IMG/VR virus record: IMGVR_UViG_3300027559_000001
Location: 1-39,088 of that record
Direction: 5' to 3' (one strand)
Source of the DNA: a virus
Length of the DNA stretch: 39,088 nucleotides
The notes beneath the pieces were generated by a model. It did not search any database, was not told where the DNA came from, and was given only the letters and a program-made list of their open reading frames with translations. Of this stretch, positions 3,850-39,088 are shown in pieces; the first letter of the stretch is position 1, and every line of letters begins with the position of its first letter. A program made the position numbers and the translations under genes.

Positions 3850-3860
3850 GGGTTGAAGAA

Positions 3861-3892
3861 GGATCGCCCCTTAAAAAAGGGCGATTCCTTTT
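3861..3892 (+). terminator. Plus-sense intrinsic terminator after the capsid/decoration genes
   Basis: GGATCGCCC...GGGCGATTC forms a stem of 9 bp including a plus-sense G.U pair, followed by CTTTT. Confidence 0.65.
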
Positions 3893-3922
3893 ATGTAAAA
3901 CAGATTTACACAAGGTAAGCAA

Positions 3923-4671: not shown

Positions 4672-5750
4672 GTATTGCAACCCTCAATGATATTGTTAAT
4701 AAGGTAAGACGCTTAACGGCCTCTGGAAACTCTTATCAACTAACCGATAGCCAAATCATCGATTATATCAATAGTTTCTATCTTTATGATTTCCCAGCAA
4801 ATTATCGATCCTTAAAGCTTAAAGACAAGCTGACATTCAATACTCAACGGGGTATTGATACGTATGCTTTCGATAAAGAGCATTACTCGACAGTAGAAGC
4901 GCCATGCTATTGTTTAAAACGCGATGTGCCCCTTTTCTTTGATACTTGGAGTTTCTTTACTTCCTGGTTCAACTGGCAAAATCAGGAGAACTTTACTGAA
5001 GGTAACGGAGGTCCTGGCCCATATAGTGGGATTGTGCAAGCAACTCCTATCATACGGAGCACGAACAACAACCCAATCACCACAACACAGCTTACGAGCA
5101 CTCAAGTTTTTCCCGCAGGTCAACCGGTTTTTCCAAACGATGCAGTCTTTGGAAGAAGCCAAAACCTACTCATCACGGTAAATATTGGACTCGGCAACAC
5201 TTTAAATGTAACAGATGATGGAGCAGGAAACCTTATTGGAAATTGTTTATCAGGTGGCTCAATCAATTATGATACAGGAGAGATCTCTAATCTTATTTTC
5301 ACAAGTAGCGTTCCTTCTGGAGCTGAAATTCAGATTCAATACAACCAAGCAGTACTTTCAGTACCTCTTGCAATCCTTTTCTTCCAAAATCAATTTATTC
5401 TGCGTCCTATCCCAGATCGTGGCTACACCGTTGAATTAACTGCATATCGACTGCCATCGCAAGCACTACTTGGTTCCAAAGACCCTAACAATCCTAACTT
5501 TGCCGGCGCTCCAGAGCAAAATGAATGGTGGGAAACTTTAGCCTTCGGTGCGTCTAAAAAGATCTTTGAAGACCGCATGGACACAGATGGTGTGGCTATG
5601 ATGGATAAGGGTCTTCAAGAACATTATGACCTTATTGAAACAAGAACATATGCGCAACTTGGACAGCGTAGAATTGGCACCATTTTTTCAGATCAACTTT
5701 CTTATGGATATGGATCAACCGGATGGGGTTTTCCTTCCGGCGGTTCTTAA
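4668..5750 (+). CDS. Head-tail adaptor/connector-associated protein (putative, by position)
   Basis: 360 aa. A TTG start overlaps the upstream TGA. It lies between the head genes and the tail-tubular-like pair. The functional call rests on position only. Confidence 0.45.
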   Translation: MSIATLNDIVNKVRRLTASGNSYQLTDSQIIDYINSFYLYDFPANYRSLKLKDKLTFNTQRGIDTYAFDKEHYSTVEAPCYCLKRDVPLFFDTWSFFTSWFNWQNQENFTEGNGGPGPYSGIVQATPIIRSTNNNPITTTQLTSTQVFPAGQPVFPNDAVFGRSQNLLITVNIGLGNTLNVTDDGAGNLIGNCLSGGSINYDTGEISNLIFTSSVPSGAEIQIQYNQAVLSVPLAILFFQNQFILRPIPDRGYTVELTAYRLPSQALLGSKDPNNPNFAGAPEQNEWWETLAFGASKKIFEDRMDTDGVAMMDKGLQEHYDLIETRTYAQLGQRRIGTIFSDQLSYGYGSTGWGFPSGGS

Positions 5751-5762
5751 TAGCGGGGTTTT

Positions 5763-6374
5763 ATGTCTTTTACGTTAGGAATTCCAACTACTGGTCAGAG
5801 CTTAGGGGTGACAAAAAACCCTATTCAGCAAAACTTCACAACGATTTTTAACACGTTTGCCACTGATCACGTCAATCCAAATGGCACAAATGGTTCTCCT
5901 CCTGGCGCACATAATTGGGTGCAAATGCAATCAAATATTTTAGCTAACCTTCCTGCTACACCATCTAGCGTTTGGCTTATTGGTAATCAGCTTTTCAATG
6001 GAACAAATCAGCTTTTCTTAAGACCACCAGGAAATGATCAGTCGGGAATAAATGATCTTCAGTTTTCAGGCCCTTATACAGAGGTTTTAGTAGGAACCTC
6101 TCCCAACCAAACAATCGGTGGTATTTCTACACCGCTTATTGGTGGTTTGTTTTTAAAAAGTGCAACAGTGCCCATGACAAATTTTAAAGCCGTATTGTTT
6201 TCAGATGTTTGCGGATCAGCTTTTCCAAATCAAATTATTGGATTAACGGTGACAATTATATTTACTGGAAGTTCACCAGCAGTATCTCCATTGGTCAGCA
6301 CTGTTTCAGCTACCGGATTTTCAGTATTAACTAACATTACATGTAATATTTCATTCGTAGCAATAGGTTATTAA
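5763..6374 (+). CDS. Tail tubular protein A-like (gatekeeper/adaptor), by size and synteny
   Basis: 203 aa, directly followed with TAATG coupling by an 858-aa protein. This mirrors the T7 gp11 (196 aa) / gp12 (794 aa) arrangement. Confidence 0.45.
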   Translation: MSFTLGIPTTGQSLGVTKNPIQQNFTTIFNTFATDHVNPNGTNGSPPGAHNWVQMQSNILANLPATPSSVWLIGNQLFNGTNQLFLRPPGNDQSGINDLQFSGPYTEVLVGTSPNQTIGGISTPLIGGLFLKSATVPMTNFKAVLFSDVCGSAFPNQIIGLTVTIIFTGSSPAVSPLVSTVSATGFSVLTNITCNISFVAIGY

Positions 6375-20578: not shown

Positions 20579-20977
20579 TTATTTCTCTCTATTGTAATAA
20601 ATTTTGTTTTTATCGATATCACTGATAAAATTTTGTAATTTAAAATCGATCGTTCTTAAAAGTTCAGTCATGTCCTTTACTTGGTTTCTCATATCAGAGA
20701 TAATTGAGGGAATATTATTTATCATAATTTTTACATTTTCTTCGTTCACAGGCATTTCATCGCGAAAGTGAAGATTGTTTTCATGTAATAGTCTTTGCAT
20801 TTCTCTCAAAGAAAATTTTCCAACATTTCTCCAGCTCATAATTTCTCTGGTTGTAAATGTCGCAAGCGTCCCTAACGTATGAATATTGTTAAATTTTAAA
20901 ATATTTTCTGTGCGCACACTCATTTCAAACCAATGCAATGGACGTACTTCTGGAGGAAGATTGCATTCCTCATCCAT
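20579..20977 (-). CDS. RNA polymerase alpha-subunit C-terminal-domain-like (helix-hairpin-helix) protein with a coiled-coil tail
   Basis: LHWFEMSVRTENILKFNNIHTLGTLATFTTREIMSWRNVGKFSLREMQRLLHENNL aligns by eye to E. coli RpoA CTD ([53 protein letters not shown]). ATGA-coupled to GroES. Confidence 0.7.
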   Translation of the reverse strand: MDEECNLPPEVRPLHWFEMSVRTENILKFNNIHTLGTLATFTTREIMSWRNVGKFSLREMQRLLHENNLHFRDEMPVNEENVKIMINNIPSIISDMRNQVKDMTELLRTIDFKLQNFISDIDKNKIYYNREK

Positions 20978-21987: not shown

Positions 21988-22223
21988 TATGCACACCATC
22001 TAGAAAAGTCTATACTAGAACTTTGTAAAGCTTTTGCAGCACAATCTTCAGGATTTTCGCACCTTCCTTGCGCTATAGCCTCTAAAACTGCACAATGTAG
22101 ACTGTCTTCATAAGAATGAGCTCTTTCATCATCATAAGATATACTCTCTAGATAAAGCAACGCATCAAGGATAACTGAAGGAGTGATTTTATCAGGCCAC
22201 ATTGGTGGCTTCTTATGTTCCAT
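21987..22223 (-). CDS. Hypothetical protein (78 aa)
   Basis: GAGG lies 8 nt before the ATG at 22223 (MEHKKPPMW); the ORF opens at 22238. TAATG overlap with the exonuclease stop. Confidence 0.6.
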   Translation of the reverse strand: MEHKKPPMWPDKITPSVILDALLYLESISYDDERAHSYEDSLHCAVLEAIAQGRCENPEDCAAKALQSSSIDFSRWCA

Positions 22224-23131
22224 TATGTAAACCTCCACTTCGTGATAGGCTCTTTTCGATAAGCATCCAAGTTTATCCCTATCAACTCAGGAATCGAGTT
22301 ATAATTCACTCTTCCTTTTTCGACGATCTTGCACACTCTTATGCCCCCCCCAATTGTACTTTGGCCTCCAGTCATTAGGAGTAAATCATTCTTCACAGCA
22401 TCTTTCTCTTTTTCTAGGTCCTTTATGGCATCATCGAGTTGTTTATATCTCTCTGCCTTTGTCTTCCAGTCTTCAGATTCATTTTGCACAAAATCTTTGT
22501 TATCCAAAGATGGTGGGATAAAGTCTTTAACATGTTTCCAAAACTGATGAAGTCTTTCCATCATCGAGGTGACATAACCCATGTTCCTTACAATTGGAAC
22601 AATCACGGTGTCTCCTAAGTCTTTTAATTCACCGCTTTCTAGGATAGCTCCATGATTGGAAATGTAGAGCATGGTATCTAGGCCCATAACTTCCATGATG
22701 CCATTGACTTGACCCACATATTTGTCAGGAATCATCCCAAATTTAGCAAGCTCATGGTCTAACTTATTTGCCGTTTTTATCTCAATAACTGTTTTACCAT
22801 CTGAAGATATTCCGTCTAAGCTTGCGCCAAAATAGGCAATTTTGGGATGCTGATAAACGCAAGGTTGAAATTCTGTTTCAAGTTTGCGTGATACATAGTT
22901 CCTTACGTGGGGTTCTAGAACAACCCCACGTTTCATTGCCTCACTTTGCTGTTGCGTCTCACCTAAGCCTACCATCTCTTCCCATAGCTGATAACGGGTT
23001 TTGTAAGGACTTTCCCCCATGATAACGGGTATTTTAGAGGCTGTGAGTGTATTCAGGCGCCACTTGTGCCATTGTGGGGAGCCTTGTAAAACATCAATCT
23101 TTATTGGTTCATGCCGCATTGATAACCTCAC
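22223..23131 (-). CDS. YqaJ-type (lambda Exo-like, PD-(D/E)XK) recombination exonuclease
   Basis: GSPQWHKWRLNTLTASKIPVIMGESPYKTRYQLWEEMVG is the YqaJ N-terminal signature. It is paired with RecT. An alternative start lies at 23119. Confidence 0.8.
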   Translation of the reverse strand: MRLSMRHEPIKIDVLQGSPQWHKWRLNTLTASKIPVIMGESPYKTRYQLWEEMVGLGETQQQSEAMKRGVVLEPHVRNYVSRKLETEFQPCVYQHPKIAYFGASLDGISSDGKTVIEIKTANKLDHELAKFGMIPDKYVGQVNGIMEVMGLDTMLYISNHGAILESGELKDLGDTVIVPIVRNMGYVTSMMERLHQFWKHVKDFIPPSLDNKDFVQNESEDWKTKAERYKQLDDAIKDLEKEKDAVKNDLLLMTGGQSTIGGGIRVCKIVEKGRVNYNSIPELIGINLDAYRKEPITKWRFT

Positions 23132-23915
23132 CTGTTTTTAAATCCATTTCTAGGTTTGCTTTTTCTACTTCTTTGAGCTTTTCCTGAATACGGTTCAAAA
23201 GAATCTCATAGTCTTCACTTGTGAGATTTTTGAATCCCTTCTTTTTATCTACAACATTGTTGGTCACCATTTTGCGAAAGTTTTCAGGGCATTTGCTAAG
23301 TTCTAACGCAAGAAATTCATGCATCTCAGCAGTTACCCCTGGCACTTCTATGGTTTCCACATCATCGCTATAATGCTGGGCCTCAGCTTCACTTGATGGA
23401 AGATCCCCGCAAATATCTGGAAATGCTTTCTTGATAGAGGCCATCTCAGCGCATTTGATTAACTGACTTTTAGCACGTTCTCTCCAGGTTGCATTCGCCT
23501 CTCTTTGATCACCTTTACCCTTCATTTTAACGCATTCATCGTACCAGGCTTCACCGAAGACATCATGCCACGTTCCGTCTACGGTTCTTTTCTTAATCCA
23601 AACTTTTGCATAGACGGGCATTCCTCGATCATCGAAAGAAAGTTCAGTAGCTCTATCGCTTGGTGCATAATTGCCTGTCCTATCAGCAAGAGCTCTATAC
23701 CCTCCAATCCCTAAGATTGTCTGCATCACATTCCTGCCTGCACCACTATCCCAAATTGGGATCGCATGCACCTGCTTCATGAAAGGATCTAAGTTAAATT
23801 TCTTGCACAAATGGCTGAAAATGAAATACTCGGCATCAGAACAGCCTTTCGCCACGCTAGTCTTAACGGCCGCTTCCACCTCTTTGGTCCATTCGATCTT
23901 CATTAATTGACTCAT
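23109..23915 (-). CDS. recT: RecT/Bet-family single-strand annealing protein
   Basis: FNLDPFMKQVHAIP...ILGIGGYRALADRTGNY...QLIKCAEMASIKKAFPD fits RecT/Bet motifs as I recall them. It lies directly upstream of the exonuclease. Confidence 0.7.
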   Translation of the reverse strand: MSQLMKIEWTKEVEAAVKTSVAKGCSDAEYFIFSHLCKKFNLDPFMKQVHAIPIWDSGAGRNVMQTILGIGGYRALADRTGNYAPSDRATELSFDDRGMPVYAKVWIKKRTVDGTWHDVFGEAWYDECVKMKGKGDQREANATWRERAKSQLIKCAEMASIKKAFPDICGDLPSSEAEAQHYSDDVETIEVPGVTAEMHEFLALELSKCPENFRKMVTNNVVDKKKGFKNLTSEDYEILLNRIQEKLKEVEKANLEMDLKTGEVINAA

Positions 23916-27809: not shown

Positions 27810-28016
27810 CTACTCTTTTGGTAATTCGGGGAGAGGCATCCAGTGAGTGATCCGATCTGAGAAAAAGGGACCCTCAGACTTCCAAAGACACTCATCTTGA
27901 TGAATGTTCGCGTCATAATATCTTCCGTAACAAATTTGCTCTGAATCTGTGAAAAGTAAATATTGCTCTGAATCTTCCGAAGGTGTCCTATCTTTTACAC
28001 TTATCCATTCACTCAT
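27810..28016 (-). CDS. DUF551-like protein
   Basis: EWISVKDRTP ... ITHWMPLPELP is the DUF551 signature (WISV.DRLP ... THWMPLPEPP). Confidence 0.75.
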   Translation of the reverse strand: MSEWISVKDRTPSEDSEQYLLFTDSEQICYGRYYDANIHQDECLWKSEGPFFSDRITHWMPLPELPKE

Positions 28017-28282
28017 TTCTTAGACCATTTTAGTTTTGGTTCGCTAAGATAAACATTCCTAAATTGTCTACGTCTCATCTCTTGATATGCACATTGAAGT
28101 CTATATTCTTCAACTTGCTGCTTGCGCTTTTCAGCTTCTTCCCTTTCCTTTTTCATCATATCCTCGAACCATTCTTTATTCTCTTGATATAGCTTGTAGA
28201 GTGAATCTTCGCGATTGTCTTCAAGCAGTTGGTAAGGATTGCTTACTGGTTCAGGAGATGCTCTTCGGGGAGGGCTAGCCAT
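28013..28282 (-). CDS. Charged coiled-coil protein (89 aa)
   Basis: Clean ORF, ATGA-coupled downstream. The plus-strand ORF 28087..28278 is an antisense shadow. Confidence 0.6.
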   Translation of the reverse strand: MASPPRRASPEPVSNPYQLLEDNREDSLYKLYQENKEWFEDMMKKEREEAEKRKQQVEEYRLQCAYQEMRRRQFRNVYLSEPKLKWSKK

Positions 28283-28556
28283 TATAAATTCCTATGATCA
28301 TGTCTTTCGTTTCTTTATCGAGTTTGTCTAAAATTTCATAGCCAGAAGGAAGGCATTCGGGCAAAGGAAACCATGCTTGAACTTCATATGTCTTACCAAA
28401 AGGATATTTGCGAGGCTTTCCAGTTCTTCCGAAAGGAATGTATCGCGTTATCTCATCACGCCAGACGAATCCTTCTTTATATCTCCACATGATCAAAACT
28501 TTTTGACCCTCTTGAGGAAGTCTATCCGAAATCATTATCCATTGGGGATTATCCAT
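28275..28556 (-). CDS. DUF551-like protein (divergent)
   Basis: MDNPQWIMISDRLPQEGQKVLI...QAWFPLPE. The ORF opens at 28604, but the DUF551 domain normally starts at the N-terminus, and 28556 limits the overlap to 8 nt. Confidence 0.6.
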   Translation of the reverse strand: MDNPQWIMISDRLPQEGQKVLIMWRYKEGFVWRDEITRYIPFGRTGKPRKYPFGKTYEVQAWFPLPECLPSGYEILDKLDKETKDMIIGIYNG

Positions 28557-29514: not shown

Positions 29515-29988
29515 ATGATTACTTGGAAACTAGAAACTAGAAAACTGAAAGAGTTGCGCGAACATCCTCGCAATCCTCGCCAACTCAAAAAAGATCAATC
29601 AGATCATTTAATGCGCTCATTATCAACCTTCGGCATTGTTGAGAAGCCCATTATCAACTTAGATAATATGATCATTGGCGGCCATCAGCGTCTTAAGATT
29701 CTTAAGAAAATGAACTTAAAAGAAATTGAATGCTGGGTTCCTGATCGAAAGCTTGAGGATCGAGAAGTTGATGAGCTTTGCATTCGTCTTAATAAAAACA
29801 CAGGCGATTGGGATTGGGATGCTTTAGGTAATCTTTGGAATCCCCCCGATTTGATTGATTGGGGCTTTCATCCTGATGAATTGCTCGAGGGTATTACAGA
29901 TAACGAAGCTGCATTAACTGAACCTGAAGATTGCGGCTCATGCGAGCTATGTGGTCAAAAGCTAAAGGGTAAAAAGAAAGATGGCTAG
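29515..29988 (+). CDS. ParB-like nuclease domain protein
   Basis: LKELREHPRNPRQL...IVEKPIINLDNMIIGGHQRLKIL is the ParB/Srx N-domain pattern. C-terminal CGSCELCG. Confidence 0.7.
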   Translation: MITWKLETRKLKELREHPRNPRQLKKDQSDHLMRSLSTFGIVEKPIINLDNMIIGGHQRLKILKKMNLKEIECWVPDRKLEDREVDELCIRLNKNTGDWDWDALGNLWNPPDLIDWGFHPDELLEGITDNEAALTEPEDCGSCELCGQKLKGKKKDG

Positions 29989-30466
29989 GAAACCAACCGG
30001 AAATCCTACAGGAAGACCAGAAAAAGAGATTGATTGGACTATGTTCGAGCAACTCTGCCACATACAATGTACACAGTCTGAAATAGCTTCCTTTTTCAAG
30101 ATTCACCATGACACTTTAGCATATCGTACCACAGCCCATTACGGGGAATCTTATTCGGATGTCTATAAAAGGTACTCAGATGGCGGTAAAATGTCTCTCC
30201 GCAGAATGCAGCTTAAGCTCGCACAAAAGAATGCTGCCATGGCTATCTGGCTCGGTAAGCAATACCTAGGTCAAAAAGATAAAGAGGCAACTGGAGAAAA
30301 TGACATTGATGCAATCAGAAAAATTGCTCAAGCTCTTAGAGACTTACCCGGAATTAAAGAAGCTGAGCGACCAGCGTTGGAGATTGGACAACCTTTATTA
30401 CATCAAGAACAGCGAAGGGAACCGAGTCCAGTTCAAGATGAATTGGGCACAAAAGGAACTCTATGA
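29981..30466 (+). CDS. terS: Terminase small subunit
   Basis: GRPEKEIDWTMFEQLCHIQCTQSEIASFFKIHHDTL (HTH) and ...LKLAQKNAAMAIWLGKQYLGQKD are typical TerS features. It lies directly upstream of terL. Confidence 0.65.
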   Translation: MARKPTGNPTGRPEKEIDWTMFEQLCHIQCTQSEIASFFKIHHDTLAYRTTAHYGESYSDVYKRYSDGGKMSLRRMQLKLAQKNAAMAIWLGKQYLGQKDKEATGENDIDAIRKIAQALRDLPGIKEAERPALEIGQPLLHQEQRREPSPVQDELGTKGTL

Positions 30467-31820
30467 CACGCTGCATAATTGCGAGATAGTCCTTAAATGC
30501 AGGCAGATCGGCATCACGACGTTCTTTGCTATCCTCCTATTAGATCAGGTGCTTTGGCATGATAACGTTTCTTGTGGCGTTATTGCTCATACCCTGGATG
30601 ATTCTAAAAGCATTTTTCAGGACAAGCTAAAATATGCTTTCGATCATCTACATCCTGCTATTCGACCCTTGTTTAAGGTTGTGGGAGATTCTGCAAAAGA
30701 GCTTGCTTTTGCTCATGGTTCAGTTATTAGGGTGGGCACTTCTTTGCGCGGTTCTACTCTTCAGTGGTTGCATATTAGTGAGTTTGGGAAGATCTGTGCT
30801 AAGGACCCTGAGAAAGCGCGGGAGATAATGACAGGCTCTTTACAGACTGTCCATGCTGGGCAGCATATATTTATTGAGTCCACTGCAGAAGGAAAAGAAG
30901 GCTACTTTTATGAGCTTTGTAAAGCCGCTTTACACCACGCTCAATCTGGTAAGCCATTTGGGGCCTTGGACTTTAAGCCGCGTTTCTTTCCTTGGAATAA
31001 GCATTATGAATATCGCCTCTCAACCGAAACGCCAATCCCTGAACATCTTGAAGAATATTTTGCTAAAATTCACCTAGAAGGCATCAAATTAACTGAAAAT
31101 CAGAAATGGTGGTATGCGAAGAAATATGAGCTACTCAAAGAAGATACCCTGCGTGAATACCCCACAACTCCGGAAGAAGCCTTCCAAGCTTCACAAGAAG
31201 GATATTGGTATGCTCGACAGATGAAAGAGCTTAGCGATCTTGGTCATATTACCAATGTCAGCTATGATAAAGCCCTTCCTGTTCATACCGCTTGGGACTT
31301 AGGCCAAGCTGATTTTATGGCTATCTGGTTCTTTCAGATTAACAGATCAGGAGACATCAATATCATCGACTATTTCGAGAAGCGAGACTGCCCAATCGAT
31401 CAGATAGCTTCTATTTTACAAGCAAAAAAATACACATATGGCGAACATATATGGCCACATGATGCTAACGCACGAGATAGAGCTGGAATCACTTTCGTCT
31501 CACAGGCGCGAGAATTTGGCCTATCTGGTATAGTACTTGAACAACATGAGGTAAAAGATGGAATCAATCTTGTCAGAGCTACCCTATCACGATGCTGGTT
31601 TGATGCCAAAAACTGCCACCGAGGGCTCATTGCTCTGGAGAGTTATAAGAAAAGATGGTCTTCGGCGATCGGGGGTTTCTCATCTGAGCCAGCCCACGAT
31701 GACGCAAGTCATGGCGCCGATTCCTTCCGCTATCTTGCAGCAGGACTTACCAAAATTGAAGCCTCTATAGGCAGTTTAAACAACGATTTGAAAGCATTAA
31801 GAGCATATTGGGGAGGATAA
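30300..31820 (+). CDS. terL: Terminase large subunit
   Basis: RLDNLYYIKNSEGNRVQFKMNWAQKELY...IVLKCRQIGITT (Walker A-like) and a C-terminal nuclease region (DLGQADFMAIWFFQ..., HDDASHGADSFRY). The start overlaps terS by up to 167 nt. Confidence 0.9.
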   Translation: MTLMQSEKLLKLLETYPELKKLSDQRWRLDNLYYIKNSEGNRVQFKMNWAQKELYDTLHNCEIVLKCRQIGITTFFAILLLDQVLWHDNVSCGVIAHTLDDSKSIFQDKLKYAFDHLHPAIRPLFKVVGDSAKELAFAHGSVIRVGTSLRGSTLQWLHISEFGKICAKDPEKAREIMTGSLQTVHAGQHIFIESTAEGKEGYFYELCKAALHHAQSGKPFGALDFKPRFFPWNKHYEYRLSTETPIPEHLEEYFAKIHLEGIKLTENQKWWYAKKYELLKEDTLREYPTTPEEAFQASQEGYWYARQMKELSDLGHITNVSYDKALPVHTAWDLGQADFMAIWFFQINRSGDINIIDYFEKRDCPIDQIASILQAKKYTYGEHIWPHDANARDRAGITFVSQAREFGLSGIVLEQHEVKDGINLVRATLSRCWFDAKNCHRGLIALESYKKRWSSAIGGFSSEPAHDDASHGADSFRYLAAGLTKIEASIGSLNNDLKALRAYWGG

Positions 31821-32020
31821 TGACTGAGAACGCGATTCATAGTTACCTTGAAAAGGGATGGTCTTATATTCAAACATCGACGACGCATGAATTCTTTGCT
31901 CCGAGAGGGAGCAAGAAAATCATTTACTCAAAACGTTTCCCGATGTTAAGGCTTGGCATTTACCCCGAGGAGGAAAATGTCAAGACATCAATGGAATGTT
32001 ACCAAAAAAGTCTATCATAA
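31820..32020 (+). CDS. Hypothetical small protein (66 aa)
   Basis: TAATG-coupled to terL. Starts with the ATGACTGAG junction motif (MTENAIH...). Confidence 0.55.
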   Translation: MTENAIHSYLEKGWSYIQTSTTHEFFAPRGSKKIIYSKRFPMLRLGIYPEEENVKTSMECYQKSLS

Positions 32021-32144
32021 GCCATTTAGGATCAAAAAAAAGTTGCATTGCTACAATCATTACTTTATATGTGAATGCTCTTGTGGGGCATCATGGCAGC
32101 AAAATATCATTGACAAGGGTGATCCATGTATCAAAGAGATTTGA
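31977..32144 (+). CDS. Cys-rich small protein (55 aa)
   Basis: GAGGAGG lies 5 nt before the ATG at 31977. It overlaps the previous ORF by 44 nt. Confidence 0.5.
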   Translation: MSRHQWNVTKKVYHKPFRIKKKLHCYNHYFICECSCGASWQQNIIDKGDPCIKEI

Positions 32145-32485
32145 AGGTAGAAGTTAAATACCTGGGCTCAAGTGAACCGATTTGGCTTACATCAATTGAT
32201 AAATCAAAAAATAAATTTAAAGGAAATAATATGTCTTGTTGCAAACATACTTCTGAAGAAAATGAAGACGAGATGCTCGAAATTTGTCTCTCTCGTAAAG
32301 ATCTCAAAATTCTTAAAGAAAAGCTTAAAGAAGGTCTAGATCAATATGATGGTGAGATTAAATATGCCACAGCTATGGTAGCCAAACATGGAAATTCATT
32401 AAGTAATTTATTAGAATATACAAATCATCTTAATGAAATTCTTCGAGCTATTAATGAAGCACAAGGCATCCAGGAAGAGGATTGA
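32126..32485 (+). CDS. Hypothetical protein (119 aa; alternative start 32231)
   Basis: Clean ORF with an acidic coiled-coil C-half. Confidence 0.6.
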   Translation: MYQRDLKVEVKYLGSSEPIWLTSIDKSKNKFKGNNMSCCKHTSEENEDEMLEICLSRKDLKILKEKLKEGLDQYDGEIKYATAMVAKHGNSLSNLLEYTNHLNEILRAINEAQGIQEED

Positions 32486-32487
32486 AT

Positions 32488-32682
32488 ATGGAAATTATTG
32501 ATAAAACAAGTGATTTGAGGACATTTTTGATTGTCACAAACACTGGAAATTTTACAGTTAAAGGCACAAGTTTCGGATTTATCGGAAGCGGACCTATTTT
32601 AGTCATTTATGTTGAAGCGGAGCCCGTAGCATGTTTTCCTAATTATTATTATATTATTGACCATGAATTTAAAATAGAATGA
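32488..32682 (+). CDS. Hypothetical small protein (64 aa)
   Basis: ATG at 32488 just after the upstream TGA. ATGA-coupled downstream. Confidence 0.6.
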   Translation: MEIIDKTSDLRTFLIVTNTGNFTVKGTSFGFIGSGPILVIYVEAEPVACFPNYYYIIDHEFKIE

Positions 32683-33119
32683 ATAAAGATTTTTTAGGAA
32701 ACAAATTTCGATATTTTAATAAGAAAGGCGAACCTATTTCTTTAATTGAGTTCAGTATTCTTTTCGAAAATTTTCAATATAAAATTATCAAACAAGAAAA
32801 TGTTGGTAAATATTTTGTTAGTACAGTCTGGCTTGGTATAGATATGAATTATCGAAAGGATGGCCCTCCTCTAATTTTTGAAACTATGATTTTTATGAAT
32901 GATGAAAATGATGAGGATAAAGGAGATCCTTGTGAACACTTTATGGAACAGAAGAAGAAGCCTGCATTGGGCACGAAAAGGCTGTTGAAATGGCCAAATC
33001 AGCCCAAATTGCCCAATAAAATAATGAAACACTTTGAGTGTCAATTGCTTCACAAAAAAGTTCCATTATATCATAATGGATCAATCTTTTCGGTATGCGA
33101 GGAATGTAACAATGACTGA
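32679..33119 (+). CDS. Small conserved phage protein, apparently frameshifted (the family C-terminus is in the -1 frame)
   Basis: YFVSTVWLGIDMNYRKDGPPLIFETMIF matches a widespread phage family as I recall it. The expected Y.TEEEA..GHE.AV end is encoded at 32936-33019 in the -1 frame (LYGTEEEACIGHEKAVEMAK). Confidence 0.55.
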   Translation: MNKDFLGNKFRYFNKKGEPISLIEFSILFENFQYKIIKQENVGKYFVSTVWLGIDMNYRKDGPPLIFETMIFMNDENDEDKGDPCEHFMEQKKKPALGTKRLLKWPNQPKLPNKIMKHFECQLLHKKVPLYHNGSIFSVCEECNND

Positions 33120-33336
33120 GGAAGATAATCTCCTACGAGAAGCTATTTCTAAGATAGCAGGGCAAGAGCGTCAAATCCTTGATGATTTTGCAAAAGCAAA
33201 TATTGCTGCAAAATCATTCCTAACTCATGAAGATATTGCTTATATAATCACGCATCTTCAACTCTATCAGCAAGAAGTTAGAGAAGGAAACTTTTTCGGA
33301 TATAAATATTGGTATAGTTGGAGAGAGAATGACTGA
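33112..33336 (+). CDS. Hypothetical small protein (74 aa)
   Basis: Starts with ATGACTGAGGAAGA (MTEEDNLL). 8-nt ATGACTGA overlap with the upstream stop. Confidence 0.6.
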   Translation: MTEEDNLLREAISKIAGQERQILDDFAKANIAAKSFLTHEDIAYIITHLQLYQQEVREGNFFGYKYWYSWREND

Positions 33337-33344
33337 GGAAGAAT

Positions 33345-33533
33345 ATGCCTTGTACATGTTGGTATGAACCATCGGAAGCTTCTAAGAGCCTAATCAAAAA
33401 TCACTGTCAAGCGATTGTGGATGAGGTTCGTCGTTTGATGCAAATAGGTGATCCCTTGGGTTGCGAAATGAAAGACGTTCATGAGTTACTTGATCACCTT
33501 TACGATCCAGAAAGATGCAAGGAAAAGAGATGA
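33345..33533 (+). CDS. Cys-containing small protein (62 aa)
   Basis: The GAGGAAG of the junction motif serves as the RBS 7 nt upstream of the ATG. Confidence 0.6.
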   Translation: MPCTCWYEPSEASKSLIKNHCQAIVDEVRRLMQIGDPLGCEMKDVHELLDHLYDPERCKEKR

Positions 33534-33928
33534 CTGAAGAAAACGTTCACTGGAGCCAGATTGAAGAGGGCAAACAGGCACTTCTAAAGCTTATCAATGA
33601 AACCTTAGGTCCATTCGACCCTGGGCCTTTTTGCAAGGAAGGTGAAAGCGGTGAGGACAATATATCAATTAAGGTACCTACTGGTTCCGCTAATGTAAGA
33701 AGATCGCCACCCACCTCTTTTTTAAGAATTGATTCAGATGGCAACACATGGATAGAAGTAAAAGTTGGACCAAATGAGTCTGAGCCTTTTTATCGTGAAG
33801 AGGGGATATTTAAAATAATTGATGAAAGAATTCAATGGTGGAATCAATATTTACCAGAGCATTTATTAGTAGAAATTTCTAACTTAATTGTGAAATACCT
33901 AAACGAAAAGAGAGCTGAACATGGATAA
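33530..33928 (+). CDS. Hypothetical protein (132 aa)
   Basis: ATGA-coupled. Starts ATGACTGAAGAA (MTEENVHW). Confidence 0.65.
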   Translation: MTEENVHWSQIEEGKQALLKLINETLGPFDPGPFCKEGESGEDNISIKVPTGSANVRRSPPTSFLRIDSDGNTWIEVKVGPNESEPFYREEGIFKIIDERIQWWNQYLPEHLLVEISNLIVKYLNEKRAEHG

Positions 33929-34340
33929 ATTTGCAGAATTTTACAATGACGAAAACAAAATAGAGGAACTATCAGAATATGTTCATATCAATTTTAAATT
34001 GATTCACACAAAAATGTTATCTGAGATGAGAAGAAAGTTAGAGCTCACACCTGATATGCAAAATTCTGATGGATATGTCTCTTTGATGGTATCGCTATAC
34101 GGAAAAATGTTTAATGAAATGGTTTATTCCTTAGCGGGCATAAGTCAAGCAACAAATACAAAAGTTTCAGACATAATTCCTGCAACGACCTTAAAGGTTT
34201 TTCTGGATCTTTGGGAGGGAAAAAATCCCTTGGAAGGGAGAATGAGAACCGATGTAAAAGATGACCTAGAAGGTTTTAAGAAGTACTATTTAGAAAATAT
34301 CGACAGCTTACGACAGGTTTCTGAAGCTTTGCCAAAATGA
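33921..34340 (+). CDS. Hypothetical protein (139 aa)
   Basis: 8-nt overlap (ATGGATAA) with the upstream gene. Clean ORF. Confidence 0.65.
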   Translation: MDKFAEFYNDENKIEELSEYVHINFKLIHTKMLSEMRRKLELTPDMQNSDGYVSLMVSLYGKMFNEMVYSLAGISQATNTKVSDIIPATTLKVFLDLWEGKNPLEGRMRTDVKDDLEGFKKYYLENIDSLRQVSEALPK

Positions 34341-34603
34341 AAACCGTAACAATAAGAAACATAACCGACATTCTTGACGAAGAGTTTGGGGAATGGTGGG
34401 ATAACCCTTATGTCCTAAACATCTTTGCCTACCAGATGCAGATATTCGATGAAGAGAAGATTAAAACGGAATGCCCATTTTCCACGATAGATGCTTGCCT
34501 TGAGTTTAAGCGTAAGCGTACTGTCAATGGTAAGCCCATCAACGAACAATTCAACCAAAGAGCTTTCGAGAAGCTTATTCAAAGGGAGGAATATGAGATT
34601 TAG
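34337..34603 (+). CDS. Hypothetical protein (88 aa)
   Basis: ATGA-coupled. Clean ORF. Confidence 0.65.
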   Translation: MKTVTIRNITDILDEEFGEWWDNPYVLNIFAYQMQIFDEEKIKTECPFSTIDACLEFKRKRTVNGKPINEQFNQRAFEKLIQREEYEI

Positions 34604-34727
34604 AGCCAAACTATTCCATACTATAATGTGGGTCTTTGTTAAATTAAGACTTTGCTTGGAGTGCAAGATCACTACTTATAATGGAAGTTTCAAGACATAT
34701 GCCGCATGGGAAGAATATGAAAGCTGA
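34593..34727 (+). CDS. Micro-ORF (44 aa)
   Basis: GGAGGA lies 4 nt before the ATG. MRFRAKLFHTIMWVFVKLRLCLECKITTYNGSFKTYAAWEEYES. It bridges the two neighbours with short overlaps. Confidence 0.3.
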   Translation: MRFRAKLFHTIMWVFVKLRLCLECKITTYNGSFKTYAAWEEYES

Positions 34728-35025
34728 GCCATTGACCATAAATATAAATGATAAGAGTCCACTTCCAGATCGTTCAAATGAAATTACTCTTGCCCATGGC
34801 CTTGGTGTCGCTCTTCAACCTGATGGTCGCTTTCGGATATTTCACGAATGGATCAGCGTAAAGGATAGGCTGCCTGATCTATATGAAGAAGTTTTAGTAT
34901 TCAGAAGCCCTCCAGATCAAATTACAATATCTACCATACTTTTGATGGTTGACAATGAACCTCTATGGCGTGATCAAATATATTATAGTCACTGGATGCC
35001 TCTTCCTAAACCACCGGAGGAATGA
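34681..35025 (+). CDS. DUF551-like protein (alternative start 34717)
   Basis: EWISVKDRLPDLYEEVLVF...YSHWMPLPKPPEE. This is the third DUF551 copy in the genome. Confidence 0.7.
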   Translation: MEVSRHMPHGKNMKAEPLTININDKSPLPDRSNEITLAHGLGVALQPDGRFRIFHEWISVKDRLPDLYEEVLVFRSPPDQITISTILLMVDNEPLWRDQIYYSHWMPLPKPPEE

Positions 35026-35270
35026 TGACTGATTTCCCAAAGCATTTAACATTGTTAATAGAGCACAATCCTCATAAAAACTACTACCAAACTTCCAAAG
35101 AATGGTTTTATGATTATCACTGTTGTGAACAAGCCGATAAAGATGAATTTTCAGAAATCGATGATTTTTGGAAAATGCAATGGTATCCCAATACTCCCAT
35201 TGGTTTTCATGTAGTATTTGGAAGAACTTTGGAAGAGTGCCTTGAAAAAGCGAGGAAGTTGAATGACTAA
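35022..35270 (+). CDS. Hypothetical small protein (82 aa)
   Basis: ATGATGACTGAT start overlapping the upstream TGA. It ends AATGACTAA. Confidence 0.65.
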   Translation: MMTDFPKHLTLLIEHNPHKNYYQTSKEWFYDYHCCEQADKDEFSEIDDFWKMQWYPNTPIGFHVVFGRTLEECLEKARKLND

Positions 35271-35325
35271 GGAAAGAATAAAATCTATGAAATTAGAATT
35301 CATAACCAATTTGGAAATTTAACAA

Positions 35326-35523
35326 GTGGATAAAAAGAAATATAGCATTACGATTGAATTTACTGAAAAATCCTTCATGAATGATTTTATTGATCTTATT
35401 AAAGATGAAGACTGGAATACATATATAGAATATAAAATTATAAAAAACAAACCTGAATATTTAAATGAAATGGAAAATATCCTCTTTGAATTAAAAAAAA
35501 TTATTGAAAAAATAGATAGTTAG
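35326..35523 (+). CDS. AT-rich hypothetical small protein (65 aa, GTG start)
   Basis: ORF-track entry. Very Lys/Ile/Glu-rich. No RBS noted. Confidence 0.45.
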   Translation: MDKKKYSITIEFTEKSFMNDFIDLIKDEDWNTYIEYKIIKNKPEYLNEMENILFELKKIIEKIDS

Positions 35524-35558
35524 AATGTCATCATATTTATCAATTACCTGGAAAAAAA

Positions 35559-35777
35559 ATGACTGAGGAAGAATATAACACCGTAAATTTTATAGATGGT
35601 ATTTATAGGCCTCCCCATCATCCTGGGTCAATAGCGCAAAACGCAACGCTCGGTGTAAAATTCTCCAATGACATTTATGTAACTTCGGATATAGCTAAGG
35701 AATGGGGAATTAATGAAACCAATGCAGAATGGGTACCCGATCATCCTTTGGGTCCTTGTTGGAGAATTAAAAGATGA
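35559..35777 (+). CDS. Small protein, paralogue of 27028..27207
   Basis: Starts with AATGACTGAGGAAGAATAT, a 19-mer identical to 33328-33346. C-terminal GVKFSNDIY...EWGI...WRIKR. Confidence 0.65.
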   Translation: MTEEEYNTVNFIDGIYRPPHHPGSIAQNATLGVKFSNDIYVTSDIAKEWGINETNAEWVPDHPLGPCWRIKR

Positions 35778-36004
35778 CTGATAAATTCAAGCGTACCGGG
35801 TCAAATCAAAATATAGATCCTAAATATGTTAAAATAGTGGCTGGAATAAATGAAGATCTTTTAGGTGCATATGATGAAAATGTTTTTGTAATTCATCCTC
35901 CCGAAGGAACGGAATTCAAGGAATGTCCTTTATGCAAGAATCCTTTCGTCTACAATGGAATGCTTTCAAATTGTTTGTGGTGTGAGATTAATAAAGATGA
36001 CTGA
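35774..36004 (+). CDS. Zinc-ribbon small protein (76 aa)
   Basis: ATGA-coupled. CPLCKNPF...CLWCE. Confidence 0.65.
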   Translation: MTDKFKRTGSNQNIDPKYVKIVAGINEDLLGAYDENVFVIHPPEGTEFKECPLCKNPFVYNGMLSNCLWCEINKDD

Positions 36005-36164
36005 GGCAGAAAATAAAATTGTGAATCCTAAAAATGTTATGGAAATTTTTCGTAAACGTGCAAAAAAAAATCCAAACCTAGAAGCTGCATATATTGAAGA
36101 GAAGAAAAAATACTCAGTGATTTTAAGAAAGACTAATGTCAAATCTTTCACAACACTCACATGA
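35997..36164 (+). CDS. Basic small protein (55 aa)
   Basis: ATGACTGAGGCAGAA start with an 8-nt overlap on the upstream stop (MTEAENKIVN...). Confidence 0.5.
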   Translation: MTEAENKIVNPKNVMEIFRKRAKKNPNLEAAYIEEKKKYSVILRKTNVKSFTTLT

Positions 36165-36167
36165 TCT

Positions 36168-36419
36168 GTGAGGGCTGTTTTAATTTTAAAAACATCATAT
36201 GCCTCCAAGACACAACAAGGAGGCACCAAAAAGCCACATAAGGGTTATTATCAGACGTTTAAGCAAGCAAAACTCCCCCTTTCAACTCTTCTGTCTTTAT
36301 CAGGGAAAACCAAAATGTCTTTAGGGGGAAATTCCAAGCTTAGCAAGTCGAGATTTATTCGACAACTCCAAACTTATAAAAAACCCGGGGTACGCCCCCG
36401 GGAAACCATCAACCAATGA
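36168..36419 (+). CDS. Doubtful ORF (83 aa, GTG start, low-complexity basic)
   Basis: No RBS. It contains a GC hairpin plus A-tract (36378-36402) that reads as a minus-sense terminator. The region may be non-coding. Confidence 0.25.
   Translation: MRAVLILKTSYASKTQQGGTKKPHKGYYQTFKQAKLPLSTLLSLSGKTKMSLGGNSKLSKSRFIRQLQTYKKPGVRPRETINQ
36378..36402 (-). terminator. Minus-sense intrinsic terminator upstream of the portal gene
   Basis: CCCGGGG - 5-nt loop - CCCCGGG is a perfect 7-bp GC stem. In minus sense TTTTTTAT follows; in plus sense AAACCATC follows. Confidence 0.55.
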
Positions 36420-36526
36420 AGTGTTCGAAACCCACCTTATTCATGTCCCCATTTCCAGGCAAGAAGTAATAAACATATAAATTAAAATTTATTGTATATA
36501 AAATACTCGGCCGATAATGTCGGGTT

Positions 36527-38563
36527 ATGAGAAACAATGATCCAATTTTTTGGCCCGGTGCCGAGTATGATACATCTTTAAAAGCTCAACGCGATAAAAA
36601 TTACACAGACTGCATCAATATCCTGCAAACGCAGTGGTATCAGGCCGATGTAGATCAACGTTTCGTGTTAGGTGATCAAGATATTTGGGGGTTAATGTTC
36701 CCTGGCGTTGCAATGTATCGCCGGAAGATGTTCAACTTTAACCTAATTCAGTCGCATATCAACATGATAAGCGGCTACCAAAGGCGCAACCGTAAGTCTT
36801 CAATCGTCATTCCTATTCAGTCACCGATGCAAAAGACTGCAGATTTGCTCACCAAATGCCTATATTACGTTCACAATCAGACTGGAGCCTATCAGATCTA
36901 CTCTGATGCATTCGAGCAAGGCGCGCTTACGCAAGGTATAGGGTTCATCTCTATCTATAATGACCTTTCAAACGATCCTGTGAGCGGTGATATCAAACTT
37001 CGCTATATTGATTTCAAATCGGTTATCTGTGATCCCTATTTTAGGAAACATGATTTAAGCGATTGCCGCTTTATTGAAACGCGACAATTTTTTGGTAAGC
37101 GAGAGGCTGCTAGCTTCTATCCACAATTTTCCGATGATATCATGTCACTTCCTGGCGGAAACTATCGTGACGATAAGTTTTACTATATGCCAGAAGTTTA
37201 TCAAATCCAAAGACCTGACGTGATTGCTTTTGACGAGTATTGGTATTTAGCTTCCCGCGAATGCAAATACCTCGTGGATGTAATGACGAATGAATGTCAA
37301 GAATTTCAGGGAGATGAAGAGGATTTAAGAGTTATCCTGACAAACTTTAGAGATAAACTTAAGCTTATCAAAAAACCAAAACCCACTACTAGACGCACTC
37401 TTATTTTAAATGATCGTGTACTAATTGATGAGGCTAACCCCTACGGCATAGATCGATACCCCATCGTTTGTTCCTTAGGATATTTTTCACCTGATAGCCC
37501 GTATTATTCCTATAAATTCCGCGGCGTCGTCAGAGATCTACGTGATGCGCAATATCTCTTCAACAGAAGAAAGGTATCTGACCTTGACATTTTAGAAAGC
37601 CAACAGCAGGGCCTAAAAGTTAAGAAAGGCGCTTTAGTTACTCCTGAAGATGGATTCAACCAAGGTAATGGTCGGATGCTATCGATTGATCCAAAGTTTC
37701 AAATGGATGATGTCCAACCCATGCCGATCATCCCCCCCGCTCCGACGATGATTCAGATGGAAGAGATGCTCCAAAGCGTTATGAGTAGCATTTCAGGCGT
37801 AAACGAGACAATGCTTGGCACTGATATTGATAGCAAAGCTGGGATCATTTCTATGCTTCGCAATAGTGCAGGCATCACCACACTCACAAGGCTTTTTGAT
37901 CAGTTTGATGAAACACAAAGACTTTGCGGGGATATCATTTGCGAAATGATCATGAAGAATTGGACCTTTGGCAAAGTCAAACAAGTAACGGGTGAAGAAC
38001 CCACAGCAGAATTTGATAATAAAGCTTTCTTCAAATATGGCTGCAAAGTGGTTCAAGGGGCACTTACCGAATCTCAACAGCAACTTGAACTTGCACAAAT
38101 TATTCAGCTCAATGAAATGTATCCCGATACGGTTCCTGTTGAAGAAGTGATCGAACGCATGCAGCTTCAAAATAAAGATCAAGTTGTCGAAAAGATTCTC
38201 AAACGTCAACAGGCAGCCAATGAACAACAGCAGAAGATGGAACAACTTCAGATGCAGCAACTTGAAATCGACAATCAAGCGAAGATCTCCTACGCTAATT
38301 CGCAAGATGGTCTGGCCCAAGAAAGACTTGCCAAGATCCAAACAGATATTGCAGTTGCTCAAGATAAACTTAAGAAAGCACATCAAGAAGATACAGCATC
38401 CCAACTCAATATCATTAAGATGCTTAAAGAGCTTGAGGGGATGGATATGGCCAAGATGCAAGCCAAACTGGACTTCCTTCACAGTGTCAACCAAATCAAT
38501 TTCGATCAGGTAGAACAACTTCAGCAAGAACAAGCCCAAGCTGAGAAAACGGCGACAGTCTAG
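36527..38563 (+). CDS. Portal protein
   Basis: 678 aa. Portal-type core (..FNLIQSHINMISGYQRRNRKS..) and a long C-terminal Gln/Glu-rich helical barrel-like tail. Same operon as the terminase. Confidence 0.85.
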   Translation: MRNNDPIFWPGAEYDTSLKAQRDKNYTDCINILQTQWYQADVDQRFVLGDQDIWGLMFPGVAMYRRKMFNFNLIQSHINMISGYQRRNRKSSIVIPIQSPMQKTADLLTKCLYYVHNQTGAYQIYSDAFEQGALTQGIGFISIYNDLSNDPVSGDIKLRYIDFKSVICDPYFRKHDLSDCRFIETRQFFGKREAASFYPQFSDDIMSLPGGNYRDDKFYYMPEVYQIQRPDVIAFDEYWYLASRECKYLVDVMTNECQEFQGDEEDLRVILTNFRDKLKLIKKPKPTTRRTLILNDRVLIDEANPYGIDRYPIVCSLGYFSPDSPYYSYKFRGVVRDLRDAQYLFNRRKVSDLDILESQQQGLKVKKGALVTPEDGFNQGNGRMLSIDPKFQMDDVQPMPIIPPAPTMIQMEEMLQSVMSSISGVNETMLGTDIDSKAGIISMLRNSAGITTLTRLFDQFDETQRLCGDIICEMIMKNWTFGKVKQVTGEEPTAEFDNKAFFKYGCKVVQGALTESQQQLELAQIIQLNEMYPDTVPVEEVIERMQLQNKDQVVEKILKRQQAANEQQQKMEQLQMQQLEIDNQAKISYANSQDGLAQERLAKIQTDIAVAQDKLKKAHQEDTASQLNIIKMLKELEGMDMAKMQAKLDFLHSVNQINFDQVEQLQQEQAQAEKTATV

Positions 38564-38989: not shown

Positions 38990-39088
38990 CAATTAAATAT
39001 TTAAATTGATATCTGTTGGGGTCGACATTTGTCGGCCCTTTCCATTTAAGGAGATATTATGATTATAGCACAGATGATTATTTGGATT
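38990..39088. repeat. Terminal redundancy copy B (identical to nt 1-99)
   Basis: Exact 99-nt match to the window start. Confidence 0.95.

Follow-up and report, generated by a model that had tools for sequence, protein, structure and literature searches.

A short dual-stop sequence at nine gene junctions of a phage terL-portal island: a candidate stop-restart junction and cassette boundary

Where co-directional genes share stop and start codons, as in ATGA or TAATG, the overlapping pairs couple translation by termination-reinitiation, usually aided by a Shine-Dalgarno stretch within the upstream gene. Experiments in E. coli and Haloferax have demonstrated this coupling, in a study that did not cover 8-nt overlaps (Huber et al. 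2019, PMC6728339). Short repeats at gene starts and gene boundaries have also been described in phages. Cluster K mycobacteriophages carry 11-19 copies of SAS, a 13-mer (GGGATAGGAGCCC) that lies 3-7 bp before the start codon, contains the ribosome-binding site, keeps one orientation, is conserved across the phage cluster, and has a proposed role in translation initiation (Pope et al. 2011, PMC3203893). In T4-type phages, units of a promoter and a stem-loop terminator named PeSLs lie between genes, and their copies recombine such that single-gene modules are shuffled, deleted, and inserted (Arbiol et al. 2010, PMC2839356; Comeau et al. 2014, PMC4122927). For lambdoid phages, short conserved boundary (linker) sequences have been proposed to serve module exchange, a proposal that we take from its citation in Martinsohn et al. 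(2008, PMC2327257). Finally, S-PM2, a T4-like Synechococcus myovirus, has in its early region an ‘ORFanage’ of small co-directional orphan genes (PMC2984593, PMC4503421). Here we describe a short sequence, ATGACT(G/A)A, that recurs at nine gene junctions of a small-gene island between the large terminase gene (terL) and the portal gene in IMG/VR record IMGVR_UViG_3300027559_000001. The whole stretch analyzed, 39,088 nt, is referred to below as the window.

A first-pass annotation, made from the letters alone, had listed nine copies of ATGACT(G/A)A, and all were found on the + strand where it placed them: at 31820, 33112, 33329, 33530, 35025, 35263, 35559, 35774, and 35997 (span 31820-36004). 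Every one of the nine is located at the boundary of an open reading frame (ORF). Counting both strands, the window holds 12 matches to ATGACTRA, against 3.07 +/- 1.68 (maximum 7) in dinucleotide shuffles; the remaining three are at 19989 (+, ATGACTAA), 20664-20671 (-, ATGACTGA), and 32599-32606 (-, ATGACTAA). The first-pass annotation had correctly named 20664-20671 as the sole further ATGACTGA and had overlooked the two ATGACTAA copies. Its five copies of the 9-mer ATGACTGAG are likewise present, against a chance expectation of 0.36 rather than its figure of about 0.15. It had also asked for k-mer statistics over the whole genome: an order-3 Markov model, applied without bias to all 8-, 9-, and 10-mers, puts ATGACTGA, ATGACTGAG, and ATGACTGAGG at the top for over-representation. 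The significance of the motif comes from its clustering and its position at ORF boundaries rather than from its count, as eight of the nine ATGACTGA copies are on one strand inside 4.2 kb. Two of the copies sit in a 28-nt repeat (33319-33346 and 35549-35576, 25/28 positions matching) that brackets a 2.2-kb block and contains the identical 19-mer previously noticed at 33328 and 35558.

The island (31820..36164, +) packs about 15 co-directional genes and two mini-ORFs into 4.3 kb. Its GC content varies by gene from 0.21 to 0.42, and a DUF551 gene (34681-35025) has the single Pfam or PHROG assignment, the remaining genes being orphans. The genes form a near-continuous chain, joined by overlaps of 1, 4, or 8 nt and by gaps of 2-8 nt, with three breaks, after 32020, 34603, and 35523. 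In frame 0 ATGACTGA gives ATG, and frames +1 and +2 each contain a TGA, so that an upstream ORF in either alternative frame ends within 8 nt of the next start. The upstream stop falls inside the motif at six of the nine copies. It occupies motif positions 6-8 at 33112, 33329, 35263 (as TAA), and 35997, where the overlap is 8 nt and the upstream proteins end in ND, ND, ND, and DD, and it occupies positions 2-4 at 33530 and 35774, where the overlap is 4 nt. A further 4-nt overlap is found at 35022, and a 1-nt overlap at 31820. The 4-nt and 8-nt overlaps, and the four upstream genes ending in ND or DD, had been noted in the first-pass annotation and are seen in the ORF coordinates. In order, the nine copies open ORFs of 66, 74, 12, 132, 81, 19, 72, 76, and 55 codons. 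Shine-Dalgarno-like purine runs of the GGAGG, GAGGA, or GGAGA type precede seven to eight of the nine by 4-13 nt, the copy at 35559 being without one.

Individually, the junctions, all on the + strand, read as follows. Copy 1 (ATGACTGAG, 31820..31828) starts a 66-aa gene (31820-32020) and shares 1 nt, as TAATG, with the stop of terL, whose last codons (TGG GGA GGA TAA) provide the GGAGG ribosome-binding site of this first island gene. Copy 2 (ATGACTGAGGAAGA, 33112..33125) starts a 74-aa gene (33112-33336), and its TGA at 33117-33119 stops gene 32679-33119. Copy 3, within the 28-nt repeat at 33319..33346, opens a 12-codon ORF at ATG 33329 (33329-33367), while its TGA at 33334-33336 stops gene 33112-33336. 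Copy 4 (ATGACTGAAGAAAA, 33530..33543) starts a 132-aa gene (33530-33928), with TGA 33531-33533 stopping gene 33345-33533. At copy 5 (ATGATGACTGA, 35022..35032) an 81- or 82-aa gene starts from ATG 35025 or 35022; in this ATGATGA junction the TGA at 35023-35025, which stops the DUF551 gene, overlaps a preceding ATG. Copy 6 (ATGACTAAGGAAAGAAT, 35263..35322) opens a 19-codon mini-ORF, its TAA at 35268-35270 stops gene 35022-35270, and it differs from copy 7 by one substitution and a 1-nt insertion. Copy 7, the partner in the 28-nt repeat (35549..35576), starts a 72-aa gene (35559-35777) and has neither an upstream overlap nor a clear ribosome-binding site. Copy 8 (ATGACTGAT, 35774..35781) starts a 76-aa gene (35774-36004) and stops gene 35559-35777 through TGA 35775-35777. 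Copy 9 (ATGACTGAGGCAGA, 35997..36010) is a candidate start for the last island gene (to 36164), while gene 35774-36004 ends at its TGA (36002-36004). On identical contigs, the public gene calls start at the motif ATG for six copies (31820, 33112, 33530, 35025, 35559, and 35774), in agreement with the earlier claim that the motif supplies the next start; for the last island gene they prefer ATG 35955 to 35997. The same calls use ATG 33345.

Other 8-nt overlaps exist in the genome. ATGGATAA at 33921..33928 (+) is both the start of gene 33921-34340 and the stop of gene 33530-33928, and the same 8-mer forms an 8-nt overlap at 28549-28556 (-); another, ATGGCTAG, does so at 29981-29988 (+) and 28275-28282 (-). 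As each is used twice, standardized junctions in this genome go beyond ATGACTGA.

The ORF coordinates thus support a reading of the copies as the gene-boundary junctions of what is probably a coupled gene chain, and a termination-reinitiation role would fit the junction anatomy. Like the pairs studied by Huber et al., these genes are co-directional, share 1 or 4 nt of stop and start, and have a Shine-Dalgarno stretch in the upstream gene. Two copies are plain ATGA junctions and one is TAATG, while four are an 8-nt extension of the same idea. Unlike those pairs, the window reuses one dual-stop 8-mer at nine junctions, even where no overlap is in use.

Codon usage and gene starts both indicate that the motif is conserved as DNA. 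Codon 2 is ACT in 9/9 copies, whereas Thr is encoded by ACT in 29% of cases outside the island and in 22% within it (P about 1.5e-5). Eight genes outside the island also start with Met-Thr, and their Thr codons are mixed (ACG, ACC x3, ACT x2, ACA x2). Motif-started genes number 7/15 in the island against 0/48 outside (Fisher P = 1.2e-5). The conserved block is ATGACTGA(GGAAGA), beginning at the ATG; the preceding 20 nt are not conserved. When the first four residues are removed, no pair among the motif-started proteins is significantly similar (105 pairs; best z = 2.8), BLASTP among the island proteins finds similarity confined to the first residues, and paralogy of the island proteins is accordingly not supported. 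The invariant ACT, the copies that open mini-ORFs of 12 and 19 codons (both present, as first reported), and the use of stops in different frames together mean that what is conserved is DNA and not one coding role, as the first-pass annotation had held.

Several other functions were considered. No sequence complementary to the motif occurs elsewhere in the genome, and neither Rfam families nor tRNAs were found, which removed an antisense partner or regulatory RNA from consideration. A promoter or terminator role was rejected for want of enrichment of either: promoter-like sites number 22 against 25.2 expected, and terminator-like sites 8 against 5.6 expected, with none at motif copies. Pfam and PHROG scans detected no integrase or transposase among the scanned proteins, no RegA-like or RNA-binding match was found among them, and no attC-like inverted repeats adjoin the copies.

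The two mini-ORF copies precede genes with native starts of their own. GAGGAAG at 33335-33341 is 3 nt upstream of ATG 33345 (its GAGG core 6 nt upstream), and is placed to act as its ribosome-binding site, as originally proposed. All six homologs of gene 33345-33533 (57-74% identity) start with MPC(T/M)C, which marks that ATG as the native start. In loci L092, L094, and L095, each homolog has an AGGAG-type site of its own 6-8 nt before the start, with no copy of ATGACTRA close by. In the window this role falls to the motif's GAGGAAGAAT, which resembles the native AGGAGAAAAT of L094. The family itself is Cys-rich, of ~62-67 aa (MPCTCWYEPSE...DPLGC...LLDHLYDP..C), has no family annotation, and is found in several phage types (the window, L092, L094, L095, L222), near RecT/YqaJ genes or in the terL-portal slot. 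The second mini-ORF, at 35263, ends 3 nt ahead of GTG 35326, the start of gene 35326-35523 (GC 0.21), whose homologs align with it from residue 1 onward. L096 has the same GTGGATAA start, there in an 8-nt overlap with a different upstream gene. Motif copies flank each of the two genes with native starts (33329/33530 and 35263/35559), and the GC of both is unlike that of the adjacent genes. We suggest that the copies at 33329 and 35263 could be left-hand junctions stranded by the insertion of genes bringing their own starts, and that the mini-ORFs may still relay ribosomes to ATG 33345 and GTG 35326.

Motif-started genes 33530 and 35559, by contrast, had no homolog among 5.8e9 proteins (for 35559, in a word-indexed search). 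In L223 a weak relative of 35559 has an N-terminus that is longer and different; gene 31820 has a weak relative in L001 of which the same is true, and in relatives this homolog lies upstream of the terS and terL genes. Gene 32679 has a relative in another context (L003).

The motif recurs in phages unrelated to the window. Viral contigs were scanned with a pair pattern and with a triple pattern of three ATGACTGA copies spaced 198-228 nt; chance expectations for these scans rest on control 8-mers, the size of the scanned collection not being given. The pair scan recovered L088, which has no detectable similarity to the window and carries three ATGACTGAG junctions in its own terL-portal slot: a 5-codon mini-ORF with GAGGAAG before the next start, and two 8-nt overlaps, one of the three being the portal start. 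The triple scan returned 51 loci. In 25 of these, genes of 50-120 codons form an array in which every gene starts at the motif, and a single locus can hold up to 15-16 copies. Blastn left the 25 arrays in 12 unlinked clusters, whose GC spans 0.28 to 0.62; 11 remain without L097, an exact tandem repeat. Among 126 unique start-type copies the upstream stop is the TGA at positions 2-4 in 52, the TGA at positions 6-8 in 46, and neither in 28, with a G-rich site at -11 to -8.

Scans of the same pattern with other 8-mers returned fewer clusters. The dual-stop control ATGAGTGA, which like ATGACTGA has two stops in the other frames, gave eight clusters, and ATGAATGA, also dual-stop, gave five; ATGACAGA, with one stop and the sole single-stop 8-mer scanned, gave two. 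The two-stop property of junction 8-mers therefore looks general. A preference for C at position 5, which avoids an out-of-frame ATG, GTG, or TTG, is only weakly supported by the cluster counts of 11, 8, and 5. Only the window and L088 have the GAGGAAGA(AT) extension, and elsewhere position 9 is G in 6% of copies; the extension is most likely a recent copying of a lineage-specific 5' gene end.

Several of the loci recovered deserve mention in their own right. The most extreme array found, L128 (IMGVR_UViG_3300032030_000121, - strand, 468-7803), holds fifteen small genes in 8.2 kb at GC 0.28; they have a common initiation region of ~28 nt (GGTGATTTGA-ATGACTGAAAAACGATTT), and many of the proteins start MTEKRF. 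In L097 (11084-11486, -) a 43-codon ORF with the start ATGACTGAT is present three times in tandem as identical 201-nt units, either a very recent tandem duplication or an assembly artefact. In L091, a relative of L088, the portal starts with ATGAACGAAGAAGAGAGACAGG and a near-copy, ATGACTGAGGAAGAGAGACAAAG, lies 212 nt upstream in the preceding ORF (6741, 6953), which suggests a duplication of the portal 5' end. L137 (2257-3690) has eleven copies of ATTTCCATGACTGAAAAGTCATG at 72-80-nt spacing and by appearance is a CRISPR-type repeat-spacer array. Internal protein repeats, tandem repeats, or this CRISPR-like array accounted for L089, a pair-scan locus, and for roughly half of the loci that the triple scan returned; these were set aside as not being gene junctions. 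A scan of viral contigs with the 19-mer was uninformative, 12 of its 14 matches being internal MTEEEY peptides in long ORFs.

The largest array cluster consists of T4-like cyanomyoviruses, and it is here that breakpoints fall on the motif. In the cyanophage arrays identity jumps from background to 90-100% exactly at ATGACTGA and drops again at the next copy; in one example, a cassette at L134 10162-10390 matches L121 1717-1945 and has unrelated flanks on both sides. Of the 73 alignment blocks, eight start and eight finish on a motif copy that is present in both of the genomes compared. The first-pass annotation had proposed to look for such breakpoints in related phages: they are present in the T4-like cyanophage arrays with the same 8-mer, and the seven public copies of the window genome are identical where read.

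S-PM2 shows the same pattern in a cultured phage. Its ORFanage (10.9 kb read) has 14 + strand copies of ATGACTGA, all at ORF starts and accounting for 10/39 annotated starts; its core genes (50 kb) have one internal copy and 0/59 starts. As in the window, then, ATGACTGA stands at the ORF starts of small co-directional orphan genes and is near-absent from the core, although the S-PM2 island is in the early region and not between terL and portal. Given that the motif is restricted to orphan-gene islands in both phages, turnover, besides translation, would maintain it. Papers on the S-PM2 ORFanage, as far as they could be searched, make no mention of the motif, and a literature search with ATGACTGA as a literal string returned primer sequences only.

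Set against the described repeats, the motif looks like a mixture of ATGA/TAATG coupling and PeSL-like cassettes. Like SAS, it is a short asymmetric repeat in one orientation at the starts of unrelated non-structural genes, with the upstream stop sometimes inside it; unlike SAS, it extends from the start codon through codons 2-3, has a variable ribosome-binding site, and is absent from relatives. It resembles PeSLs in being a short repeat between small orphan genes in hyperplastic regions, with a putative role in expression as well, but PeSLs act on transcription, whereas the window genes overlap, show no promoter or terminator enrichment, and are joined by a repeat that is an 8-14-nt translational junction. 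The motif thus fails the defining features of both SAS and PeSL. From what is cited of the lambdoid linkers, the likeness lies in a lambdoid-type phage with a RecE/RecT-type module and short gene-boundary sequences that possibly support homologous exchange; those linkers, as cited, are common to the phages of a group, whereas the motif is shared within one genome and convergently among unrelated phages, not among relatives. Integron cassettes differ again, there being no integrase in the Pfam and PHROG scans of the window and no attC-like repeats.

The window is a complete circular phage genome of ~38,989 bp, its ends (1-99 = 38990-39088) being a 99-nt assembly overlap. Seven public contigs, found by exact-protein look-up, carry the genome, and the four that were read are 100% identical to the window; the identical contigs come from four samples (JGI 3300001593 and 3300001124; ENA ERZ27313983 and ERZ27256131) and are circular permutations. 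The terL gene at 30300..31820 (+; PHROG phrog_2, E = 1e-24), for which public gene calls give the start as 30438, has relatives at 61-69% amino-acid identity. On its right the slot ends at the portal gene (36527..38563, +; Pfam P22_portal, E = 7.6e-59; phrog_156). No cultured phage was matched by megablast, and terL scans of viral and metagenome contigs returned relatives at no more than 71% amino-acid identity. Across relatives with 42-69% terL or 52-71% portal identity, the length of the slot ranges from 385 nt to ~6 kb, and its contents are unrelated small genes, a methyltransferase, or an HNH endonuclease. Since it is filled and sized differently from one relative to the next, the terL-portal slot is a hypervariable insertion site.

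We lean toward a reading in which the motif is a frame-robust stop-restart (translational coupling) junction that would also act as a cassette boundary and has been spread by short-homology recombination. Small accessory genes would fill the hypervariable slot head to tail, and the copies would be the stop-restart junctions that these genes have in common. A ribosome ending the upstream gene could reinitiate at the motif ATG, helped by the purine-rich Shine-Dalgarno stretch in the upstream gene's last codons, and the island genes would be translated as coupled chains. Because stop and start share the same few bases, a crossover in the junction would leave two intact coupled genes. The junction would in this way be a practical cassette boundary, copied at each gene gain or swap by short-homology recombination. 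The window phage has a lambdoid-style replication module. It also has a recombination module of its own, with a RecE-like exonuclease (22223-23131, -; PHROG phrog_434, E = 2e-54) and a RecT-like single-strand annealing protein (23109-23915, -; phrog_2449 / phrog_2780, E = 3e-29 / 2e-27), which makes spread by short-homology events plausible; RecET has been reported to recombine 5-13-bp homologies at low frequency (PMC2327257). That coupling in fact occurs, and that the motif mediates recombination in this phage, we infer from the sequence. If coupling does occur, downstream translation would be sensitive to a change of ATGACTGA to ATGACAGA or ATGACCGA. If the whole model is right, ATGANTGA, with ATGACTGA foremost, would be enriched among ATGNNNNN gene starts in islands only, and beyond what codon usage explains.

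A number of observations weigh against this reading. The lead of ATGACTGA over other dual-stop 8-mers is clear in array size and moderate in clusters (11 vs 8 and 5). At 35559 there is neither overlap nor clear ribosome-binding site, so coupling cannot explain the conservation of that copy. Relatives of the window phage have no ATGACTRA junction arrays, even in 4-6-kb islands in the same slot (L006, L095, L222, L223), and the motif is absent from homologs of the island genes in other genomes. As the seven public genome copies are identical where read, there is no polymorphism from which gains or losses between copies of the motif could be read off. Random recombination, filtered by selection for intact genes, would likewise place breakpoints at gene boundaries, and the published 9.5-kb spontaneous deletion in the S-PM2 ORFanage has its endpoints off the motif (PMC4503421). 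The first-pass annotation had itself named relatives without the motif at equivalent boundaries as telling against it. Such relatives were found, but their islands are made up of unrelated genes and hence offer no equivalent boundaries for comparison. Its suggestion of a recombination linker finds indirect support for this phage in the cyanophage breakpoints, and the motif-free homologs of island genes elsewhere count against it.

Recurrence across unrelated phages would also be expected if the motif were purely a translational optimum, a good restart context (Met-Thr-Asp/Glu with a dual stop) reached by selection on each gene with no recombination, the cassette-boundary pattern then being a by-product of genes as units of selection. 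The sequence-unlinked clusters with their spread of GC from 0.28 to 0.62 and their differing flanks, the roughly equal use of the two TGAs, and the excess of every dual-stop variant over the single-stop control all agree with such an optimum. It does not account for the absence of the motif from overlapped core genes as well (0/48 outside the island; 0/59 in the S-PM2 core), for identity reaching 14-28 nt between some window copies, or for retention of the whole 8-mer at non-overlap and mini-ORF copies, and we regard it as unlikely, if a serious contender. The regular spacing of copies (217, 201, 238, 215, and 223 nt) and the gene sizes of 55-81 aa raise the separate possibility of diverged tandem paralogs, arising by serial duplication of one small gene of which the initiation end alone is still recognizable. 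Weak similarity between 35559 and 35997 (51 nt at 75%) and between 35774 and 35997 (29 nt at 79%, protein z = 2.8) points the same way, as do clearly paralogous arrays in some other phages, such as an MTDDLVxxLR family. Yet none of the 105 protein pairs is significantly similar beyond the first four residues, individual genes differ in GC between 0.21 and 0.42, and genes 31820, 32679 (L003), and 33345 have relatives in other contexts, which leaves tandem paralogy improbable.

The remaining accounts treat the motif as a binding or recombination site, or as chance. As an operator, AUGACUGAGGAAGA would be bound by a phage or host translational repressor, a nuclease, or a small RNA that co-regulates the island genes. 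The targets of T4 RegA offer one analogy and the proposal made for mycobacteriophage SAS another. The conserved initiation region, single orientation, and restriction to non-structural genes do recall SAS (PMC3203893), and S-PM2 encodes RegA; however, the window has no complementary sequence, Rfam family, tRNA, or RegA-like or RNA-binding match among the scanned proteins, the invariant part is just the 8-mer, whose bases are explained by the start and stop codons, and unrelated phages use the same 8-mer with different flanks. An operator is in our estimation quite improbable. The direct repeats that bracket single genes (33329/33530, 35263/35559) and the 2.2-kb block between the 28-nt repeats might instead recall an integron-like site-specific cassette system or a transposon-like target duplication. 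This is very improbable in view of the missing integrase or transposase among the scanned proteins, the missing attC-like inverted repeats by the copies, repeat lengths that vary from 8 to 28 nt, and the occurrence of the bracketed genes without the motif in other genomes. Chance with codon constraints draws on the 8-mer count, which taken alone is marginal after multiple-testing correction over all k-mers, and is refuted by the statistics: eight of nine ATGACTGA fall on one strand in 4.2 kb, 9/9 ATGACT(G/A)A are at ORF boundaries, ACT is used 9/9 times, the Fisher test gives P = 1.2e-5, and the 28-nt repeat is present. The stop-restart and cassette junction remains the account toward which we lean.

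Further features of the genome and its relatives were recorded along the way. DUF551 (phrog_924) has three paralogs in the 39-kb genome, two in the leftward early operon (27810-28016 and 28275-28556, both -) and the third in the island (34681-35025, +). At the island end, a weaker terminator-like hairpin (36156-36172, +) adjoins a gene-poor gap of 362 nt upstream of the portal (36165-36526), which holds a strong terminator-like hairpin at 36384-36402 (-), CCCGGGGGCGTACCCCGGG followed by TTTTTT; alignment of this gap with relatives shows no conservation. The 12-nt palindrome TTAAATATTTAA occurs at two sites ~960 nt apart, 4-15 (= 38993-39004) and 966-977, and may be an operator or binding site. 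AACCCTTATG has four exact, scattered copies (3845, 10526, 34403, and 36237; two per strand) against ~0.06 expected. Among relatives, one carries ~550 nt inserted between terL residues 240 and 241, which interrupts the reading frame (L012 / L063, 2477-3031); the insert may be an intron, an intein, or a mobile gene. In the closest relative, the slot between terL and portal has an opposite-strand 180-aa ORF with HNH-like motifs, resembling a homing endonuclease (L001 / L053, 11509-12051, -). Contigs of relatives of ~40 kb (L217-L224) sit in metagenome bins labelled Chlamydiae, Myxococcales, Verrucomicrobia, Planctomycetes, Acidobacteria, Deltaproteobacteria, and Nitrosopumilaceae; this placement across seven phyla is evidently mis-binning. 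A 360-kb Acidobacteriota contig with a distant relative is the sole, weak hint of a host.

Phage genes of unknown function lie mostly in fast-turnover islands of tiny overlapping genes, and how such genes are swapped while neighboring genes and their own expression stay intact is poorly understood. If the reading favored here is correct, a sequence at which either frame stops, the next gene starts, and crossovers fall would provide a simple rule for island turnover, would explain nucleotide-exact mosaic boundaries, and would mark true starts and island boundaries for annotators. More speculatively, ATGACTGA, together with ATGAGTGA and ATGAATGA, may be a widespread, convergent ‘universal adaptor’ of the hyperplastic or orphan-gene islands of phages, a tentative idea that we put forward as possible rather than probable. 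Were it true, it would allow seamless exchange of single genes between overlapping genes across phage lineages, and possibly the capture of new ORFs, making the motif a translational counterpart of PeSLs. The window alone is a well-defined but unproven example, and the S-PM2 ORFanage is a cultured system with the same pattern.

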